A program made the translations under genes and the position numbers. A DNA stretch of 23,334 bases from a virus. Numbering within the stretch: position 1 is the first letter of the stretch; each line of letters opens with the position of its first letter. The stretch is from the UHGV virus genome UHGV-0335559, one strand, 5' to 3'. The notes beneath the pieces were generated by a model. The model had not been told where the DNA came from and made no database searches. It saw only the letters and a list, made by a program, of their open reading frames with translations. Positions 13,955-23,334 of this stretch are shown here, in pieces.

Positions 13955-14959
13955 ATGGGCGCGGAGATTAATATTTTGGAAACTGATTTTAAAATAACCC
14001 TCGAAGGTTTCGCTACTGAGCAAGAAGCAAATAATATCGGTAATTTCACACTAGAAGCTATCCGAGCTTTAACAAAAAATCTCAATCTTGATATCTCCAA
14101 ATTAAAATGCGTGATTGTTTCCTATAACTTCAGTGAAGCTCTTCAAAAGGTAACATCCTCTTACCAACACAAATCCCCTAGTTCATTTACCAATAGCAAA
14201 CAGGGCGCAGCCGTCGGGCAGTTAGTAACAAAAATTGGCAATGATGGGCTATGTGAAGAATATACCCTTGTGCTATCGATTGATTTTTTTGTTGAGCTTT
14301 TCAATGATGGTAGCTTCTTAAAACTGAAAGAAGAAGGATACCTCGCAGTCATCCATCGCATTCACCATGAATTAGTGCACGTACATGAAAAAAACTTACT
14401 AACATGCTTAGCCCAAAACTTTACAGTCAACGAGTATGGTAGCGCGCTTCTTATCTCAGCCACGCGTGCATGGTCTGAATATCTCGCTAATTACATGTCT
14501 TCGGGGTCTGCCCCTCAAGAAACTATCGATTTATTTTTAGAGAATCTTGACACTGTTGTAAATGAAGTATCTGACGAGATTGAAAAACTCATCTGGGGTT
14601 ATAAGTACGGTAATATTTCTCTGAATGACATGTATCTTGAAGTAAAAAAACGTATCAGGCTAATCATCAACTCTTATGCTTATGCGATGGGTTATGTCCA
14701 TTCTCTAAACATCAATATTAAAGAATACGATCCAAAGCTATCCCTTACACTATCCAACTCAAAGATAAGATATCAATTATCAGAATTAGGCATTGCTTTT
14801 CAGAATCTTTATGGGAAGTTTAATGACCAGCACATTACAGGTTTTGGTGATTTTCGGGAGATAACAATAATCATTGATGAAATATTCAAGCAGTTTGGGC
14901 TTGTTTTAGAGTGTCCCGATTGGTCTGGCGACGGTGAACTCTACATACATGTAAATTAG
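13955..14959 (+). CDS. Hypothetical cargo protein, 334 aa, HExxH motif (IHRIHHELVHVHEKN); no recognisable family
   Basis: Long uninterrupted ORF in an island of about one-third G+C (flanking phage genes are well above 50%). Sits between the portal gene and cos, where P2 as I recall it has only about 100 bp. No Walker A, no TM segment, no HTH that I can see. Confidence 0.6.
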   Translation: MGAEINILETDFKITLEGFATEQEANNIGNFTLEAIRALTKNLNLDISKLKCVIVSYNFSEALQKVTSSYQHKSPSSFTNSKQGAAVGQLVTKIGNDGLCEEYTLVLSIDFFVELFNDGSFLKLKEEGYLAVIHRIHHELVHVHEKNLLTCLAQNFTVNEYGSALLISATRAWSEYLANYMSSGSAPQETIDLFLENLDTVVNEVSDEIEKLIWGYKYGNISLNDMYLEVKKRIRLIINSYAYAMGYVHSLNINIKEYDPKLSLTLSNSKIRYQLSELGIAFQNLYGKFNDQHITGFGDFREITIIIDEIFKQFGLVLECPDWSGDGELYIHVN

Positions 14960-15178
14960 TTTAATCATAGTAGAAACATAATTAGCAGTTTGAATCCTGC
15001 CACTCCTGTAAAGCCGCTGCTCCTGGTGGCTTTTCCATGCACACCACCATCACGCATCAGATGCGTCTCACGCGCACGAACACACTCGACCACCAACGAA
15101 CCAGCAGCGACCACGACAGCGCCATCACGACGCGCTCAGAGGATAATTTTTATTATTACGCATCACTGCTGGCGCGCA

Positions 15179-15197
15179 ATGCTTTCCCCGCCACGCC
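15179..15197 (-). other. cos-like site (19-nt cohesive-end sequence of P2/186-type phages)
   Basis: Minus strand reads GGCGTGGCGGGGAAAGCAT, matching the 19-nt cohesive end as I recall it for 186 (P2: GGCGAGGCGGGGAAAGCAC). Its orientation relative to Q is the same as at the P2 left end. Confidence 0.55.
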
Positions 15198-15353
15198 TGC
15201 CCGCTTTATGGGGCGGTTTTAATGCAGTTGCATGACAACTCTGGATCCGCGCTAGCTCTGGCGGCGCACGGACAGAACGGGCAAGACTGACGCATGCAAA
15301 ACCATGCACCTAATGCATGCACGACTAAAAAACGGGAAATTCGCGGAAAAATG

Positions 15354-15390
15354 GCATAAAAAAACCGGCATTCAGGGTGCCGGTTTTAGT
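15354..15390. terminator. Bidirectional rho-independent terminator
   Basis: A-tract (15356-15364), 7-bp stem ACCGGCA (15364-15370) / TGCCGGT (15378-15384) with a 7-nt loop, then TTTT. U-runs follow the hairpin on both strands; it would end the minus-strand tum-like operon before cos. Confidence 0.55.
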
Positions 15391-15523
15391 CTGGTTTTGT
15401 CGCGATTAATGGCCGCGCAATGCGCCAATAACACTGTTGAGGCACATGCTGGCAACAATCATCAGAAAAATCGTCGTCCACGGATTTTCATAAACGATAG
15501 ATAACATATTTATATAGTTCCTC

Positions 15524-15808
15524 TTATTTGCGCATTCTGATGTGATTTAACAGGTGTTTGATAACGACTGATAGCTCATCTTTACCGGCCTGCTCGACCA
15601 TTTTTGCGGTGTAGCTTTCCACCTCGCGAGAGCTCAGGTCGTTATTTAAAGCCATTAAAGTCAGATTCTTTGCCCAATCGGCAAACGGGTCATTTTTCGA
15701 TGAAAGGGGATTTTGCATGTACAAAAACCTCGAATTATTTAACCAGCAGACGGTTGAAGTATTTGCGACGCTATGACCGGCTAACGCCTCGCGTAGCTCG
15801 TTGTTCAA
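15524..15808 (-). CDS. Hypothetical small protein (last gene of the SOS operon); start uncertain
   Basis: 94-aa ORF whose first codons lie inside repeat A. An internal Met at 15718 (MQNPLSSKND...) with GAGG upstream is the more likely start (64 aa). No recognisable family. Confidence 0.35.
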   Translation of the reverse strand: MNNELREALAGHSVANTSTVCWLNNSRFLYMQNPLSSKNDPFADWAKNLTLMALNNDLSSREVESYTAKMVEQAGKDELSVVIKHLLNHIRMRK

Positions 15809-15849
15809 CCCCGCCAGACCTGAAAGCGAGTTTCAGCTCCGGCGGCGTT
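15785..15849. repeat. 65-bp direct repeat, copy A (contains hairpin CTGAAA-GCGAG-TTTCAG)
   Basis: Aligns with 16190-16254 at roughly 85% identity, including identical blocks TTGTTCAACCCCGCCAG and CCGGCGGCGTT. Begins 2 nt after the stop of the 69-aa ORF on the minus strand. Confidence 0.75.
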
Positions 15850-15851
15850 AT

Positions 15852-16061
15852 CTATGGTCGACGTGGTGGCGGTGAGTAATGTGTCGGCTTGCTGATGCTA
15901 TCCAGCTTGCCGTAATTATCCCTGACTATTTCGGCACACCCGACCAGCTCGGCGGGTGTCAAATTCTCATTGACCATTATCTGCTGCAGACGATGAACGA
16001 TGGCCATCAGTTTGATGCTTTTAGTTTTGTGCTGCGGAATTTTGCCCGGTAGTCGATGCAT
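15852..16061 (-). CDS. Hypothetical 69-aa protein flanked by the two direct repeats
   Basis: ORF with GAGGG Shine-Dalgarno 7 nt upstream of the ATG at 16061. No recognisable family. Confidence 0.4.
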   Translation of the reverse strand: MHRLPGKIPQHKTKSIKLMAIVHRLQQIMVNENLTPAELVGCAEIVRDNYGKLDSISKPTHYSPPPRRP

Positions 16062-16189
16062 ATTATCGCCCTCAATGAATTTTATTTAGCGCTGCCACAG
16101 CGCCACTATAAAACCCGCTAAGGTAACGTCCCATTCATCACTGGTGTGTAACCAATAAAACATCGAGAAACTTTGAGAGGAAGAACTAG

Positions 16190-16254
16190 CGCCTCGCGGT
16201 GCGAGTTGTTCAACCCCGCCAGCACTGAAAGCAAGTTTCAGCACCGGCGGCGTT
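16190..16254. repeat. 65-bp direct repeat, copy B (contains hairpin CTGAAA-GCAAG-TTTCAG)
   Basis: Partner of 15785-15849; begins 2 nt after the stop of the DinI-like gene on the minus strand. Confidence 0.75.
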
Positions 16255-16256
16255 TG

Positions 16257-16490
16257 TTAATGCAGCCAGCTATCGTCCTCCCATACCTGCTGCATGATTT
16301 CCATTACTCGTTTTTTATCTTCGTCCAGTTTCAAACCGCTTAGTTCAACGCCATTAGCGGAGCCCTTGCGAATTCGGATAGCAGTCTTTGGGTAAATAGG
16401 TTGAAGATTGCGGTACAGTTCAGCCTCAAGTGCATCCAATGTTGCCTGACTAATTTTTTGCTCTTTATCCAACGTGATATTGATTCTCAT
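16257..16490 (-). CDS. DinI-like protein (DinI / 186 Tum C-terminal domain family)
   Basis: 77 aa, MRINITLDKEQKISQATLDALEAELYRNLQPIYP...VMEIMQQVWEDDSWLH; resembles E. coli DinI (MRIEVTIAK...ALAGELSRRIQ...) in pattern and length. Weak Shine-Dalgarno; the ATG is one codon after the in-frame stop of the upstream ORF. Confidence 0.75.
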   Translation of the reverse strand: MRINITLDKEQKISQATLDALEAELYRNLQPIYPKTAIRIRKGSANGVELSGLKLDEDKKRVMEIMQQVWEDDSWLH

Positions 16491-16493
16491 AAT

Positions 16494-16676
16494 CTAATCA
16501 GCCTTATAAAAATTATCATCTTCGGTTTCGTTATTTTCGCTGTTTGCTAGGTCTGCAATGAGAGTGAGCGCGAGCTTTAAGTCTGATGGCTTGCAGTTTG
16601 CAATCAGAGATACCTCGGCAATAAATTGCACACAAGCCCACTTTTGCTGCGTTCGGCTGAAATGTTCGCCAACCAT
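16494..16676 (-). CDS. Small protein, possible N-terminal (antirepressor) part of a Tum-like protein
   Basis: 60-aa ORF with strong Shine-Dalgarno (GGGAGGG) and a LexA box just upstream. Same reading frame as the DinI-like ORF, separated from it by a single TAG. Confidence 0.5.
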   Translation of the reverse strand: MVGEHFSRTQQKWACVQFIAEVSLIANCKPSDLKLALTLIADLANSENNETEDDNFYKAD

Positions 16677-16695
16677 GAAATCCCTCCCACAGGGT

Positions 16696-16715
16696 TACTG
16701 TATATTTATACAGTA
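16696..16715. promoter_or_regulatory. LexA box (SOS operator) overlapping the promoter of the tum/DinI-like operon
   Basis: TACTGTATATTTATACAGTA: CTGT (16698-16701), 8 nt, ACAG (16710-16713), one central mismatch to the consensus TACTGTATATATATACAGTA. Lies about 20 nt upstream of the start codon at 16676. Confidence 0.75.
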
Positions 16716-16789
16716 GCACGTATTGGCAAAAGATGGGAAGAAAAAAAACGAATAGAGCGATTGCTGTATGTGCATGATATGGATATGAA

Positions 16790-19012
16790 TTACCCATGTA
16801 TTGGTTTTGATGCTTCAGCCATCGCCGCAACACGATTAAGGATTTTCCGAGCTTTAGCCTCATGCGATGGTGCTGCGGAAAATATTTCTCCTTTGGCCGT
16901 TCCGCGTAGCCATTTACCATCAAAACAACTTTTACCACCGGCCATCAGGTGCAGGGCTTCGCCCCGGCTGATATTAATGCCGGTTGTCAGATGTATCTCA
17001 TCGATAGTTTTAGCTATAGCTGCGTTTTGCTCATCCGTTCCGTGGATGAATTTTCGCCGTGCTGCTGGCTTTTGCTTCCTGAGTCGGTTGGTCAATTCTC
17101 GTCTTTCACGCCGACTCAGTGGTTTTGTTAAATCCAGTATCGGTGGATCGCTTTCGCTTCCCGTACAGTTATTGACAGAACTCCGAGGGACGGCTTTGCC
17201 GTCCTGAAGGTCAACGGCCAAATCAACAGCACGCTTCGGAACAATCTTCCACTGAGTGAGCCGGGTTAAAATCGGGCTTCCTGCACCTATGGAGGAATCG
17301 TAGACCCCCTTAATACATACCGTTTCCTCACCGTACTGATTAAGCTCGGTGCGCGGTTCATACAGTGTGCGCACCTGTAAATCATCGCGACGGACAAACG
17401 GCCCACCCTGAGCATTAACATAACCAGCCCAGTCACCAGCGTCGGCGGCATCATGGACGGCGGCAAACTCAACGCTCAGACCGTGCGCGGTTTCGGTATC
17501 AGCGAGGCGACGCAACTCACGGTAAACCGTCACCGGCGCACCACCAATAAACTGAAACTGACGGATGTGCCAGCGCGCAGCCCATGCTGAAACGGCGGGG
17601 GCTGTCTCTTTCAGCAGCTCACCGCTTTCATCATCGGTTTCACCATCGAGAGCATAACCGTCGATATTTTTTGAAATGTATTTAGCAACATAGCCGGTTG
17701 CGCTGCCTTTCTCCGGGTCAATGGACTCGGCGTGGAAACGTGCTTTTTTGGATTTATCGCTTTTCAGTTCGTGGCGGTCTTCTTTCCATGCGTATTTACG
17801 GACGATGGAGCGAACATATTCAACATCTTCCGGCAGCATGAACATCAGCATGTGCCAGTGTGGAGTGCCGTCGTGATGGGGCTCGGCGACACGAATACCG
17901 AAAATACGGACATCTTCCCGATGTAGTTTGGCACGGATACGCGCCCAGATACCGGTTAGATAGTTTTGCGTGTCAGCCGGGCTGGCACCGCTCCATTTGC
18001 TGTTACGGTAACCGGCTTTAGTCGTGGCGTGATATTTTGACGGCGCGGTTAGAGTGTAAAACTCACCGACATAACCGAGCTCATTACAGATGTTTTCAAA
18101 CCCACGAATGCGGGTCATGAGCTCACAGCGGCGAATCGCAGGGTTAGCAACTGAGCCATCATATTTTTCAATTAGGCTGATACGGTTGCCGTCTTCGTCT
18201 TCGAGATCCAGACCTTTGAGAAATTCACGAGTGCGGCGCTTTTGTTCACGCCAGTCAGTCACGCAGTTTTTACTCGCGTAAGTGTTTTTTTTCTTACTGA
18301 CGTTGCCGACTGCAATTTGCAGGTGTTCGCGCCACGTAGCTGCAACACGGCGCAAACGACCGCGCCACCACCCATCGTTAAACATTTTGGCGATAGCCGG
18401 TGCGATTTCATCCGCACCGACATATTTTTTTTCAACCCGCTCCCAATGTGGTGGGATAACGTTGAATTGGAGGGAAATAAAGCCAGCACGAATATACCAG
18501 GTGTACAGCGTTTTAAGCTCGCCGAATCCGTGGTCATTAATGTTGGCAAGTTCACCACGAATGAAATTAGCAATATCAGCGGCCAACAGGTCAACATCAG
18601 CGCGCGACATGTCCGGGAGACGGTTATATTGGGCGACCATATTAACCATGCGTGACGACAGATATTGCATTTGCTGAGTATCAAAATGACTTCCAAAAAC
18701 AGCGGTTGATACCTTGCTGTTGATACCAGCGCATTCGTATTTTTTTGCGACCAGTTCAAGACGCGGCAATGCCTTTTTGCAGAAGCTGATTAAAAATGCA
18801 TTGGCTCGTTGACTACCCTGATTTTGCTCCAGCACCGCAGCAGTGCGATAAACATCTAACCGCACGCAGTCGGGCTGGAGAGAAAGCACCTTTTTTGCAT
18901 GCAGCAAAGCCGCGAACATACGGTCGCGGCGATGCTGTTGCTCATAAGTAAGGTATGGGCTGGAGATTGCCGACCGTGGGACGTTCCACGGATAAGCGAA
19001 TTGAACAGCCAA
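16790..19012 (-). CDS. A: Replication initiation endonuclease gpA (rolling-circle initiator)
   Basis: 740-aa ORF with HUH-type motif (EPHHDGTPHWHMLMF) and a tyrosine region (GYVAKYISKNIDGYALDG), as in the P2 A protein family. Confidence 0.9.
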   Translation of the reverse strand: MAVQFAYPWNVPRSAISSPYLTYEQQHRRDRMFAALLHAKKVLSLQPDCVRLDVYRTAAVLEQNQGSQRANAFLISFCKKALPRLELVAKKYECAGINSKVSTAVFGSHFDTQQMQYLSSRMVNMVAQYNRLPDMSRADVDLLAADIANFIRGELANINDHGFGELKTLYTWYIRAGFISLQFNVIPPHWERVEKKYVGADEIAPAIAKMFNDGWWRGRLRRVAATWREHLQIAVGNVSKKKNTYASKNCVTDWREQKRRTREFLKGLDLEDEDGNRISLIEKYDGSVANPAIRRCELMTRIRGFENICNELGYVGEFYTLTAPSKYHATTKAGYRNSKWSGASPADTQNYLTGIWARIRAKLHREDVRIFGIRVAEPHHDGTPHWHMLMFMLPEDVEYVRSIVRKYAWKEDRHELKSDKSKKARFHAESIDPEKGSATGYVAKYISKNIDGYALDGETDDESGELLKETAPAVSAWAARWHIRQFQFIGGAPVTVYRELRRLADTETAHGLSVEFAAVHDAADAGDWAGYVNAQGGPFVRRDDLQVRTLYEPRTELNQYGEETVCIKGVYDSSIGAGSPILTRLTQWKIVPKRAVDLAVDLQDGKAVPRSSVNNCTGSESDPPILDLTKPLSRRERRELTNRLRKQKPAARRKFIHGTDEQNAAIAKTIDEIHLTTGINISRGEALHLMAGGKSCFDGKWLRGTAKGEIFSAAPSHEAKARKILNRVAAMAEASKPIHG

Positions 19013-20581: not shown

Positions 20582-20953
20582 TCAGTTAAGAGCGGTGCGC
20601 TGGTCGATGTAGCGACAATCAATCGCTTGTTGAGTCAGCTTATCGCGCCATGCTTTTACATTTACGAGGGTTCGGCTTCGTTTAGCAGCTTCCTCTTTGT
20701 TGGAAAAGTCTTTGGTCGGAGCTTTGAGAAGGACTCCCTCATCGAGCCATTGCCAGACCAGACGCTCGCTAACACCGCGAGTAGCGGCGAAGTCTTTCAC
20801 AGTCATCGTGTCTGACATAGCGGAGCGAATCATTGTCTGTAGAGCTGGCAGCATGGCGGTAACGATGGCATCAAACTGTGTTGGGTCTAGCAGCACAGTT
20901 TGATTTTGTGAGTTTTGCGAGTCGTGCGTCGAGATTGATTTTGCATCTGACAT
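20582..20953 (-). CDS. Apl/Cox-like excisionase and lytic-switch regulator; start codon uncertain
   Basis: HTH-like core TVKDFAATRGVSERLVWQWLDEGVLLKAP; first gene of the early operon facing cI. The ATG at 20953 has an AGGAGA Shine-Dalgarno, but internal starts would give a protein of 78-90 aa, closer to the size I recall for Apl. Confidence 0.55.
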   Translation of the reverse strand: MSDAKSISTHDSQNSQNQTVLLDPTQFDAIVTAMLPALQTMIRSAMSDTMTVKDFAATRGVSERLVWQWLDEGVLLKAPTKDFSNKEEAAKRSRTLVNVKAWRDKLTQQAIDCRYIDQRTALN

Positions 20954-21066
20954 ATCGCATTATCTCCTGTTGTTTGAAATGTAGTGCAGTGGTGTGCATC
21001 TTGGTCGGTGAGCACCAATATAGATCGCTAAATTTTGGTTGTAAACAAAATTCTTGTTGGTGTCAT
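20954..21066. promoter_or_regulatory. Immunity switch region (lytic/lysogenic promoters and operators)
   Basis: Intergenic region between the divergent apl-like and cI-like genes. Contains TTGAAA (20974-20979) and the dyad TTGGT-N8-ACCAA (21001-21018), plus a further TTGGT half-site near 21055. Promoter assignment not resolved. Confidence 0.4.
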
Positions 21067-21912
21067 ATGTCTAAAAATGATGTTAATGCGTCTGCCGCAT
21101 TGGAACGTGTCCTTTCTGCATACGGCTTTAAGCAGCAAAAGGAACTAGCCGAAAGGCTTGGCATACATGCAAACAACGTGAGTAGCTGGCTTGCTAGAAA
21201 CGTAATCCCTAGCAACGTTTTCGTTGAGTGTGCTCTTGATACTGGAGCTGACCTGCGATGGCTAATTAATGGTGAGCTTGCAAATGCAAGATTTGAAGTG
21301 GTGAAAACTAAGCTTAAAGGTAAGCAACTCTATGATGAAATCATGGCAAATGGAGGGAGGGCGGTTCTGCGTCGGATTCTCGATGCGTATGGTTTTACTC
21401 TGCAAAAAGAGCTTGGAGATTTATTAGGTATATCTTCCGGCACTATAAGCACTTGGGTTAGACGCGATTTTTTCCCCGGTGACGTGGTTGTCACTTGCGC
21501 CCTTGATACTGGCGTATCGTTAGAATGGTTATCAACCGGAAAAGGCCAGATGCGTAACAGTAATGATGGTGAACCGGCAAATGCTTTAACGATTAGAAAG
21601 TGCCGCCTCGAGGCTGGCGAACTCAAAGATATCGGACGCTGGACTCCTGATATATCTATGGTTCCATCAAATACTGATGATTTAGTGTTTATTGATGGTG
21701 TGAGCACATCTTGGCTTGTTGATAGTTCTAACTCGAAGATAGGAAATGGTCGCTGGCTTATTGGTATTGATGGCGCACTCGATGTTTTTGACGTAATCAG
21801 GTTGCCAGGCGGAAAGGTAAGGTTATCAAATAAGTCTGCTGAGTTTGAATGTAATATTTCAGATATCACACCATCAGGTGCGGTTATTTTTACTTTGGAA
21901 AAGCATGTTTAA
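21067..21912 (+). CDS. cI: CI-type immunity repressor with tandemly duplicated N-terminal HTH domain
   Basis: Start set at MSKNDVNASAALERVLSAYGF... (281 aa). Two homologous ~85-aa repeats (...AYGFKQQKELAERLGI...CALDTGADLRWLINGE / ...AYGFTLQKELGDLLGI...CALDTGVSLEWLSTGK), then a C-terminal domain (...RLPGGKVRLSNKSAEFECNISDI...) resembling the 186 CI C-terminal domain as I recall it. Confidence 0.75.
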   Translation: MSKNDVNASAALERVLSAYGFKQQKELAERLGIHANNVSSWLARNVIPSNVFVECALDTGADLRWLINGELANARFEVVKTKLKGKQLYDEIMANGGRAVLRRILDAYGFTLQKELGDLLGISSGTISTWVRRDFFPGDVVVTCALDTGVSLEWLSTGKGQMRNSNDGEPANALTIRKCRLEAGELKDIGRWTPDISMVPSNTDDLVFIDGVSTSWLVDSSNSKIGNGRWLIGIDGALDVFDVIRLPGGKVRLSNKSAEFECNISDITPSGAVIFTLEKHV

Positions 21913-21921
21913 GGAGCAGTA

Positions 21922-22260
21922 ATGAAAAAGTTTATATTTGCGATAGTCTGCATTGCACTTTCTTCCTCAGCCATAGCCGCTGAGAAGTTTAAAGAGATAG
22001 ACGGCGCTGCATATGGTGACAAGTGGCCTCTAACCTTTGAAAAGGCAAAGGTATCATGTGTTAACCGTGCTTATGCTTTTGTGTATGACATCAAAACTGA
22101 TGATAGATATCCTCTGAATGGCATGGCGGTAGATGCTGTTAAATCAGGAAAGCTGGAGGGGTCTAACTTAGATGACGTATGGAAGGATGACCCTGAGTAT
22201 GACGGCGTTAAAATTTCAATTTCACCGGTGATTGATGCCGCTACAGCCCTTTGTAATTAA
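21922..22260 (+). CDS. Small secreted protein (112 aa) between cI and int; possible lysogenic-conversion gene
   Basis: AAGGAG Shine-Dalgarno 7 nt upstream; N-terminal signal peptide MKKFIFAIVCIALSSSAIAAEKF; one Cys near each end of the mature part. Confidence 0.6.
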   Translation: MKKFIFAIVCIALSSSAIAAEKFKEIDGAAYGDKWPLTFEKAKVSCVNRAYAFVYDIKTDDRYPLNGMAVDAVKSGKLEGSNLDDVWKDDPEYDGVKISISPVIDAATALCN

Positions 22261-22284
22261 TTTTCTTTTAGCCTCGGTATCGCA

Positions 22285-23334
22285 ATGACTGTAAGTAAAC
22301 AAAAAAGTGGAAAATGGTTGTGTGAACTCTATCCAAATGGTCGAGAAGGGCGGCGTATACGTCGGCAGTTCAATACCAAAGGTGAGGCCGAGGCATTTGA
22401 AGCATTTACCAAAAGCGAGAGTGAAGATAAGCCGTGGCTCGGCAAGAAAGAAGACCGCCGACGCTTAAGCGAGATTATTCAGCTTTGGCACAATTTGCAC
22501 GGTCAAGCGTTAGTCGCCAGTAAGTCGAGATTTGCAAAGCTTCAAATCGTATGTAATGGACTTGGCGACCCGATTGCATCTCGCCTTACCGCGAAAGACT
22601 GGGCTCATTATCGTGACCGTCGATTACGTGGTGAAATAGACAATGGTTATCATAAAGACCCCTCGAAATGGATCGCCAAACCTATAACCGTCAATCGCGA
22701 ACAACAATACCTAGAAGCAGTGTTTAATGAGCTCCGCCGGTTAGGGGAGTGGAGCCTACCCAATCCACTTGATGGGATCCGAGTATTCAAAGAAGCTGAG
22801 AAAGAAATGTCCTGGCTAACTTTGTCTCAGCTCCCGGAGCTGTTTCGAGCCTGCGAGCAATACGGCAAAGAAGACCTCACCATGATTGTTAAGGTGTGCC
22901 TTGCAACCGGCGCTCGATGGGGGGAAGCGGAGAGATTGACCCGACCTCAACTTTCTCCATATAAACTAACGTTCACCAAAACCAAAGGTAAGAAGAATCG
23001 CACAGTTCCTATTCCTAAATGGCTGTACGACGAGTTGTCCGTACGTCAAGGCAGAATGTTTAAACCCTGCTATCAGGAGTTTAAAAAGATGCTCAAACTA
23101 ACGAATATTGAATTGACGGAAGGGCAGAAGACGCACGTTTTGCGTCATACTTTTGGTGCGCATTTTATGATGAACGGAGGGAATATACTGGTGCTGCAGA
23201 AAATTCTCGGACATGCCAATATTCGAGAAACAATGAAGTATGCGCACTTTGCTCCTGACCACCTTGAACAAGCTGTAACCCTCAATCCGTTATCGCTGTA
23301 TGTTGGCGACAATGTGGCGGCAGAGGTTGCATAA
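22285..23334 (+). CDS. int: Tyrosine integrase (P2/186 family)
   Basis: 349-aa ORF ending at the window edge with a stop codon. C-terminal catalytic region HVLRHTFGAHFMMNGGNILVLQKILGHANIRETMKYAHF carries the H-x-x-R ... Y signature. Confidence 0.9.
   Translation: MTVSKQKSGKWLCELYPNGREGRRIRRQFNTKGEAEAFEAFTKSESEDKPWLGKKEDRRRLSEIIQLWHNLHGQALVASKSRFAKLQIVCNGLGDPIASRLTAKDWAHYRDRRLRGEIDNGYHKDPSKWIAKPITVNREQQYLEAVFNELRRLGEWSLPNPLDGIRVFKEAEKEMSWLTLSQLPELFRACEQYGKEDLTMIVKVCLATGARWGEAERLTRPQLSPYKLTFTKTKGKKNRTVPIPKWLYDELSVRQGRMFKPCYQEFKKMLKLTNIELTEGQKTHVLRHTFGAHFMMNGGNILVLQKILGHANIRETMKYAHFAPDHLEQAVTLNPLSLYVGDNVAAEVA

Follow-up and report, generated by a model that had tools for sequence, protein, structure and literature searches.

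YebY of E. coli and MlbQ of Microbispora, which share the DUF2511 fold, and Glo of the Vibrio phage K139, which does not belong to that family, are among the described systems closest to the gene considered here. YebY (7N0J) is encoded in the yobA-yebZ-yebY, or AZY, operon. Cell fractionation places it in the periplasm, and it contains a disulfide (PMC8689200); it reduces the copper uptake that depends on YebZ, and its operon influences mar activation as well as antibiotic resistance (PMC11923076). MlbQ (2MVO, 6QFP), a lantibiotic self-resistance protein, has been proposed to bind NAI-107 directly (PMC8689200). As for K139, a P2-like phage (Longwoodvirus), its GenBank record gives the order cI-orf2-glo-int and annotates Glo as "periplasmic protein; involved in phage exclusion"; Glo is also described as a virulence factor.

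Phage-borne members of the family have also been recorded. YebY genes between a phage CI repressor and a recombinase were remarked on earlier in the YebY structure paper (PMC8689200), and PSP3 gp28 and the DUF2511 proteins of SEN1, SW9, SI22, Midge, RCIP0057 and vB_EcoM-613R3 (PHROG 2950) are products of the same gene, in the same position and of the same length. They are 63-84% identical in amino acids to the protein studied here (66% for PSP3 gp28), and the difference from these PSP3-like Eganvirus genes is one of allele only. In these phages the order is always cI-gene-int, the Midge protein is annotated "putative periplasmic protein", and the gene is present in 10/10 records of phages with a PSP3-type CI. 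C and int are neighbours in the P2 record and no feature is annotated in between, as the preliminary description of this DNA had supposed, and the 186 record likewise has cI and int abutting, with no gene at this position. Literature searches for experiments on phage-borne DUF2511/YebY proteins or on PSP3 gp28 found none. Existing annotation or publications already cover the gene, its family and predicted location, and its place between cI and int; what we add is its fixed position in the lineage, its deep linkage to repressors, the positional parallel with Glo, and the mosaicism of its alleles.

The gene between cI and int and its product

The window, by which we mean the whole stretch of 23,334 nucleotides analysed (UHGV virus genome UHGV-0335559), is part of a P2/186-like (Peduoviridae, Eganvirus-like) enterobacterial prophage. 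The features that concern us are the following, in order of position.

20936 to 20964, plus strand: candidate promoter pL (TTGATT, 17 nt, CATTAT; 8/12 consensus positions), assigned by eye
21017 to 21045, minus strand: pR-like promoter (TTTACA, 17 nt, TATATT; 10/12), directing the cox-like and cII genes
21067 to 21912, plus strand: cI immunity repressor of PSP3 type, 281 aa, with two PF07022 HTH domains and Phage_CI_C
21911 to 21916, plus strand: Shine-Dalgarno AAGGAG, 5 nt 5' of the DUF2511 ATG, overlapping the cI stop
21922 to 22260, plus strand: gene of a DUF2511/YebY-family pre-protein (PSP3 gp28 homologue), 112 aa
21922 to 21981, plus strand: predicted Sec signal peptide, residues 1-19 or 1-20 (rule-based check)
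22285 to 23334, plus strand: tyrosine integrase gene int, P2/186 type, presumed last gene of the lysogenic operon

The ORF at 21922-22260, whose translation starts MKKFIFAIVCIALSSSAIAAEKF, has the position, the length and the AAGGAG ribosome binding site that had been given for it. It is a real gene, because it combines Pfam and PHROG matches with a recognised fold and a dN/dS of about 0.12. The homology search that the preliminary description proposed returned matches of three kinds: to PF10709, scoring 67.8 bits where the gathering cutoff is 21 and covering positions 5-87 of the 87 in the profile (E=1.1e-18); to PHROG 2950, listed as "unknown function", over residues 1-112 of 112 (E=1.8e-55); and to the sequence of E. 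coli YebY (7N0J), at E=3.8e-8 and about 30-34% identity, in an alignment that pairs both cysteines. The protein is also 100% identical to a RefSeq "DUF2511 domain-containing protein". A profile search of the ORF against NCBIfam gave no family, and a search of the whole window against Rfam gave no match.

An AlphaFold2 model of the ORF, built on 22 homologues and with a mean pLDDT of 79, has as its best match in the PDB YebY itself (7N0J; E=8e-7, target-normalised TM 0.84, rmsd 2.8 A), followed by the two MlbQ structures 2MVO and 6QFP (Foldseek probability 1.0, TMq 0.56-0.60); among the viral structures of BFVD, the model matches nothing at E<0.001. By its sequence the ORF is thus placed in the PF10709 family, and by its model it is predicted to have the YebY/MlbQ fold. 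In an alignment of 106 sequences, all family-wide conserved residues (W35, C46, Y63, N66, G67, A69, W87, P91, P102 and C111) are present in the ORF; C46 and C111, which align with the cysteines of YebY, are 100% conserved in that alignment and probably form a disulfide. In a few alleles (L064/L065 and P0009), Trp replaces the conserved Cys at the C-terminal end (ALWE vs ALCE), a change that would abolish the disulfide of the family.

The codon evolution of the gene is purifying. Computed on 66 distinct nucleotide alleles, dN/dS is about 0.12 in the mature part and 0.43 in the signal peptide, with values of 0.08-0.14 for cI and 0.03 for int; gene-wide positive selection is not seen in the DUF2511 gene (dN/dS 0.12-0.23).

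The predicted signal peptide owes the charge of its n-region to Lys2 and Lys3, its most hydrophobic stretch of 10 residues averages 3.3 on the Kyte-Doolittle scale, and the predicted cleavage motif is A-I-A/A-E-K, with the cut after AIA or IAA and before (A)EK. By the same rule-based check, the charged n-region and hydrophobic core are kept in 59/59 distinct alleles. Residues 1-20 fit a cleaved leader, because dN/dS is relaxed there and pLDDT is low for residues 1-20 of the model; the predicted mature protein has about 92 aa, a mass of 10.2 kDa, a pI of 4.6 and 2 Cys. A reading of the protein as a lipoprotein was rejected: the lipobox is absent and Cys13 is not conserved. The claim of a signal peptide made from the first reading of this DNA finds its rule-based features present and a family member, YebY, experimentally periplasmic (PMC8689200), and we infer, with good support, that the protein would be exported to the periplasm.

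The presumed lysogenic operon

The repressor gene cI is presumed to be the first gene of the lysogenic operon. A cox/apl-like gene and a 186-type cII lie on the opposite strand from cI. Their pR-like promoter is conserved in all aligned loci, and it is faced by the candidate pL. Like the pL of 186, this candidate overlaps the beginning of the cox-like gene. The assignment of this candidate would be a weak one, at 8/12 positions; its hexamers are conserved across diverged loci. The face-to-face geometry is the same as that of the annotated pL/pR of 186, Pc/Pe of P2 and PL/PR of K139, and in these three records the lysogenic promoter has both repressor and int on its downstream side, in one lysogenic operon. 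Because the geometry of the operon is like theirs, expression of the DUF2511 gene in the lysogen is likely, and this prediction is well supported.

The gene is packed between its neighbours as first described: the gap is 9 nt on the cI side and 24 nt on the int side, and neither junction has a promoter-like or terminator-like site, hits elsewhere in the region being at chance level. It is not a classical phage moron, with its own promoter and terminator: it is embedded in the cI-int unit. The GC content of the ORF is 42%, that of cI 43.5%, and the window average 52.5%. The stop codon of cI, TAA at 21910-21912, is overlapped by the Shine-Dalgarno of DUF2511, and a motif TA(A/G)GG(A/G), 8-9 nt 5' of the DUF2511 ATG, is kept in nearly all of 85 loci. 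Because this strong Shine-Dalgarno overlaps the cI stop, the protein would be made whenever the repressor is made, that is, in the lysogen. In the mechanism that we propose, cI, DUF2511 and int would be co-transcribed from the lysogenic pL and from the cII-dependent establishment promoter.

At the downstream end of the unit, int has no recognisable Shine-Dalgarno in its upstream region (22261-22284 and its equivalents in L001-L087). Even loci that are no more than 55-65% identical in their DUF2511 genes share a conserved GCCTCGGT motif, 7-10 nt 5' of the int ATG, and it may be a translational control element for int; the RNA folding of the ORF-int junction, considered as an explanation of the motif, is no more stable than that of shuffled sequence (z=+1.0). 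At the upstream end, the cox-cI intergenic region (20936-21066, in L001-L087), which takes in pR as well as the candidate pL, reaches at least 80% conservation at most positions, and this holds even between prophages with CI proteins only 55-70% identical: such conservation is unexpected if operator specificity defines immunity types.

Position and alleles among relatives

The same order, with cII and cox in one direction and cI, DUF2511 and int in the other, is found in 83/83 relatives, namely 80 IMG/VR contigs and 3 species-representative genomes. The preliminary description took the ORF for an unusual extra; it is instead a fixed, annotated feature of the whole PSP3-like lineage, and a homologue of host YebY. 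The cI-ORF-int segment is matched in 68/5426 genomes, or about 1% of complete E. coli genomes, with an identity of at least 99% in 15 complete E. coli genomes and of 100% in E. coli MB06232. The prophage of this last strain (NZ_CM129885, 3715-22435) is only a remnant of about 19 kb, in which the major capsid and tail assembly genes are both truncated and are fused to each other by a deletion; its cI-DUF2511-int module is intact and 100% identical to that of the window.

An exhaustive HMMER search yielded 867 DUF2511 clusters at 50% identity, the close clade being a single cluster. The nine next best-scoring relatives, 35-40% identical, were checked, and all lie in regulatory regions of temperate, mostly P2-like, elements. 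In six of the nine, DUF2511 comes directly after a repressor: it stands between a 186-type CI and Int (P0026), between a long CI and Int (P0027), after CI (P0030), between CI and a bPH/SHOCT protein in a rearranged remnant adjoining host copD-yebY (P0025), and after P2 C-like HTH repressors (P0028 and P0031). As for the others, P0032 and P0035 lie beside the ogr/gpD end of P2-like genomes, and P0033 follows a BRCT/WYL-like protein, where in K139 glo follows the BRCT protein orf2. The CI-DUF2511-bPH/SHOCT remnant with the P0025 allele (CP134152.1; L091/L092, 1-4339) is about 3.5 kb from host copD-yebY, so that a phage-type and a host-type paralogue, with 32% identity, lie close together there.

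The 59 distinct DUF2511 proteins of the 85 loci fall into at least six groups, with 50-65% identity between groups, and alleles of several groups, about 63-100% identical, circulate within E. coli alone. Between the window and loci L036-L039, L047 and L048, CI is 98-99% identical and Int 98%, but DUF2511 only 64-65%. At the nucleotide level, the identity is 96-98% in cI, drops to about 50% at 22127-22247, and is 98% again in the 3' half of int. The DUF2511 alleles reassort without regard to cI and int. Recombination within the gene seems to have produced the window allele, which resembles group C in its signal-peptide part and group A in its mature part. The cI-int slot is a cargo site; in the Klebsiella phage 4LV2017, it holds a 349-aa hypothetical protein.

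Some loci have further genes in or near this slot. A second secreted protein of 134 aa, with signal peptide MKRSIFALVLLTSFAVHA and no Pfam match, lies between cI and DUF2511 in some PSP3-like prophages, namely in L016 (3570-3974) and L005. A bPH_3 + SHOCT protein of 166-168 aa lies between DUF2511 and int in L025 (4355-4861), L024, L026 and L030; L024-L026 and L030 also have a different, short Cox-like protein. In L091-L094, a bPH_3 + SHOCT protein is found 3' of the P0025 allele, and no int follows. Elsewhere in the window, a 334-aa ORF with no Pfam match comes after the portal gene (13955-14959, plus strand), and a run of small ORFs precedes the replication gene (14960-16790). In a related E. 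coli prophage, the region equivalent to 13955-16790 codes for hypothetical proteins and for a member of the DinI family that may be a Tum-like antirepressor; 13955-16790 is likely an accessory or hotspot region.

Possible functions of the DUF2511 protein

Genes co-expressed with a prophage repressor are a classic site of traits that a prophage gives its host: exclusion, defence, virulence. The DUF2511 gene is a fixed accessory gene in the immunity operon of PSP3-like, 186-related (Eganvirus) prophages. We propose that its product, of about 10 kDa and with the YebY/MlbQ fold and a putative disulfide, would be exported by Sec to the periplasm, where it would be soluble and would protect the lysogen as a small binding protein. 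This protection would most probably take the form of superinfection exclusion, incoming phages being hindered when they cross the envelope or inject their DNA.

Superinfection exclusion, or envelope-level protection, is the function that we tentatively rank first, above a YebY-like effect on copper or the envelope. The ranking follows from these considerations: the product is predicted to be small, acidic, soluble and periplasmic, to have a binding-type fold, and to be made together with the repressor; its alleles are autonomous of cI and int, and its linkage to P2-like immunity operons holds across deep divergence; and its slot is also that of Glo, an unrelated periplasmic exclusion protein. 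Both genes encode a small periplasmic protein, predicted in our case, between cI and int in the lysogenic operon of a P2-like phage. However, Glo is an analogue by position and compartment, not a homologue: BLASTP finds no similarity at E<=100, Glo has no PF10709 match, and the two proteins share no Pfam family.

There are also results that count against exclusion. The ORF matches 0 families of the PADLOC-DB 2.0 defence models at E<=1, no DUF2511 protein is known to have an exclusion or other phage phenotype, and dN/dS gives no sign of gene-wide positive selection. Arms-race proteins often show positive selection. Finally, the only homologues studied by experiment do not act against phages: YebY has its role in copper import (PMC11923076) and MlbQ in lantibiotic self-resistance.

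The first of these activities suggests another function, possible though on balance unlikely: the DUF2511 protein could be a lysogenic conversion factor with YebY-like activity, modulating copper import by YobA/YebZ (CopC/CopD) and changing periplasmic/cytoplasmic copper, mar induction and NDH-2 activity in the lysogen. The protein is indeed a true homologue of YebY, with which it has in common PF10709, the fold (TM 0.84), a signal peptide (predicted in the phage protein), two Cys and every family-wide residue, even if the two are only about 30-34% identical. That YebY lowers YebZ-dependent uptake is a finding of 2025, and the E. coli, Salmonella, Klebsiella and Enterobacter hosts carry AZY operons (PMC11923076); one prophage remnant, as we saw, adjoins host copD-yebY. 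However, YebY has copC/copD as its context and the window gene a phage immunity operon: across deep divergence, the linkage is to the P2-like repressor operon, not to copper genes. An AZY-type context, with copD/yebZ and copC/yobA as neighbours, is absent, and the window gene is not filed as a component of an AZY operon because cI and int flank it, in the window and in 83/83 relatives. Very different alleles (about 63-100%) within E. coli would face a presumed host partner that is conserved, and the GC content of 42% matches cI, not the host. Moreover, the binding of copper by YebY is weak, and its authors think that it is probably not physiological (PMC8689200). A recent capture of host yebY was rejected, given the identity of about 30% and the phage-like GC.

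The second activity leads to a more doubtful proposal, an immunity like that of MlbQ, in which the protein would bind or sequester in the periplasm a toxic peptide or small ligand (bacteriocin, microcin, antimicrobial peptide) and protect the lysogen from competitors. The proposed direct binding of NAI-107 by MlbQ (PMC8689200) and the fold match between the two proteins speak for it, as does the diversity of alleles, which is common among immunity proteins; both would be extracytoplasmic protective binding proteins with the DUF2511 fold. Yet MlbQ is an actinobacterial, Gram-positive lipoprotein encoded beside ABC transporter genes and about 20% identical to the window protein, and in the loci examined there is no toxin, bacteriocin or transporter gene beside DUF2511. 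Lantibiotics, furthermore, are not a typical threat to enterobacteria.

It is likewise improbable that the gene serves the phage's own life cycle, in lysogeny establishment, integration control or envelope sensing. Such a role would agree with a cI-int position that is invariant in the lineage and with translation signals tightly coupled to cI, but a periplasmic location is hard to square with DNA transactions, 186 and P2 do without the gene with the same switch type and integrase, and the alleles do not co-vary with cI or int. As to a chance ORF or a decaying, functionless remnant, small size alone speaks for it, and its probability is negligible: it is refuted by the Pfam and PHROG matches, the fold and the dN/dS of 0.12, and by 59 distinct intact alleles in 85 loci with conserved Shine-Dalgarno and predicted signal peptide.

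A wider conjecture can be formulated, to which we give rather little credence: repressor-linked YebY paralogues would form a widespread, unrecognised class of periplasmic proteins of exclusion or host manipulation in P2-like phages. For example, a YebY mimic might dock on YebZ/CopD and close a route of DNA entry, or rewire copper signalling, and the divergent alleles would then set specificity. The host protein YebY, homologous to that of the phage, has lately been linked to copper import and to antibiotic resistance, and a function found for the phage protein would annotate a sizeable branch of DUF2511 and might show what the YebY fold binds.
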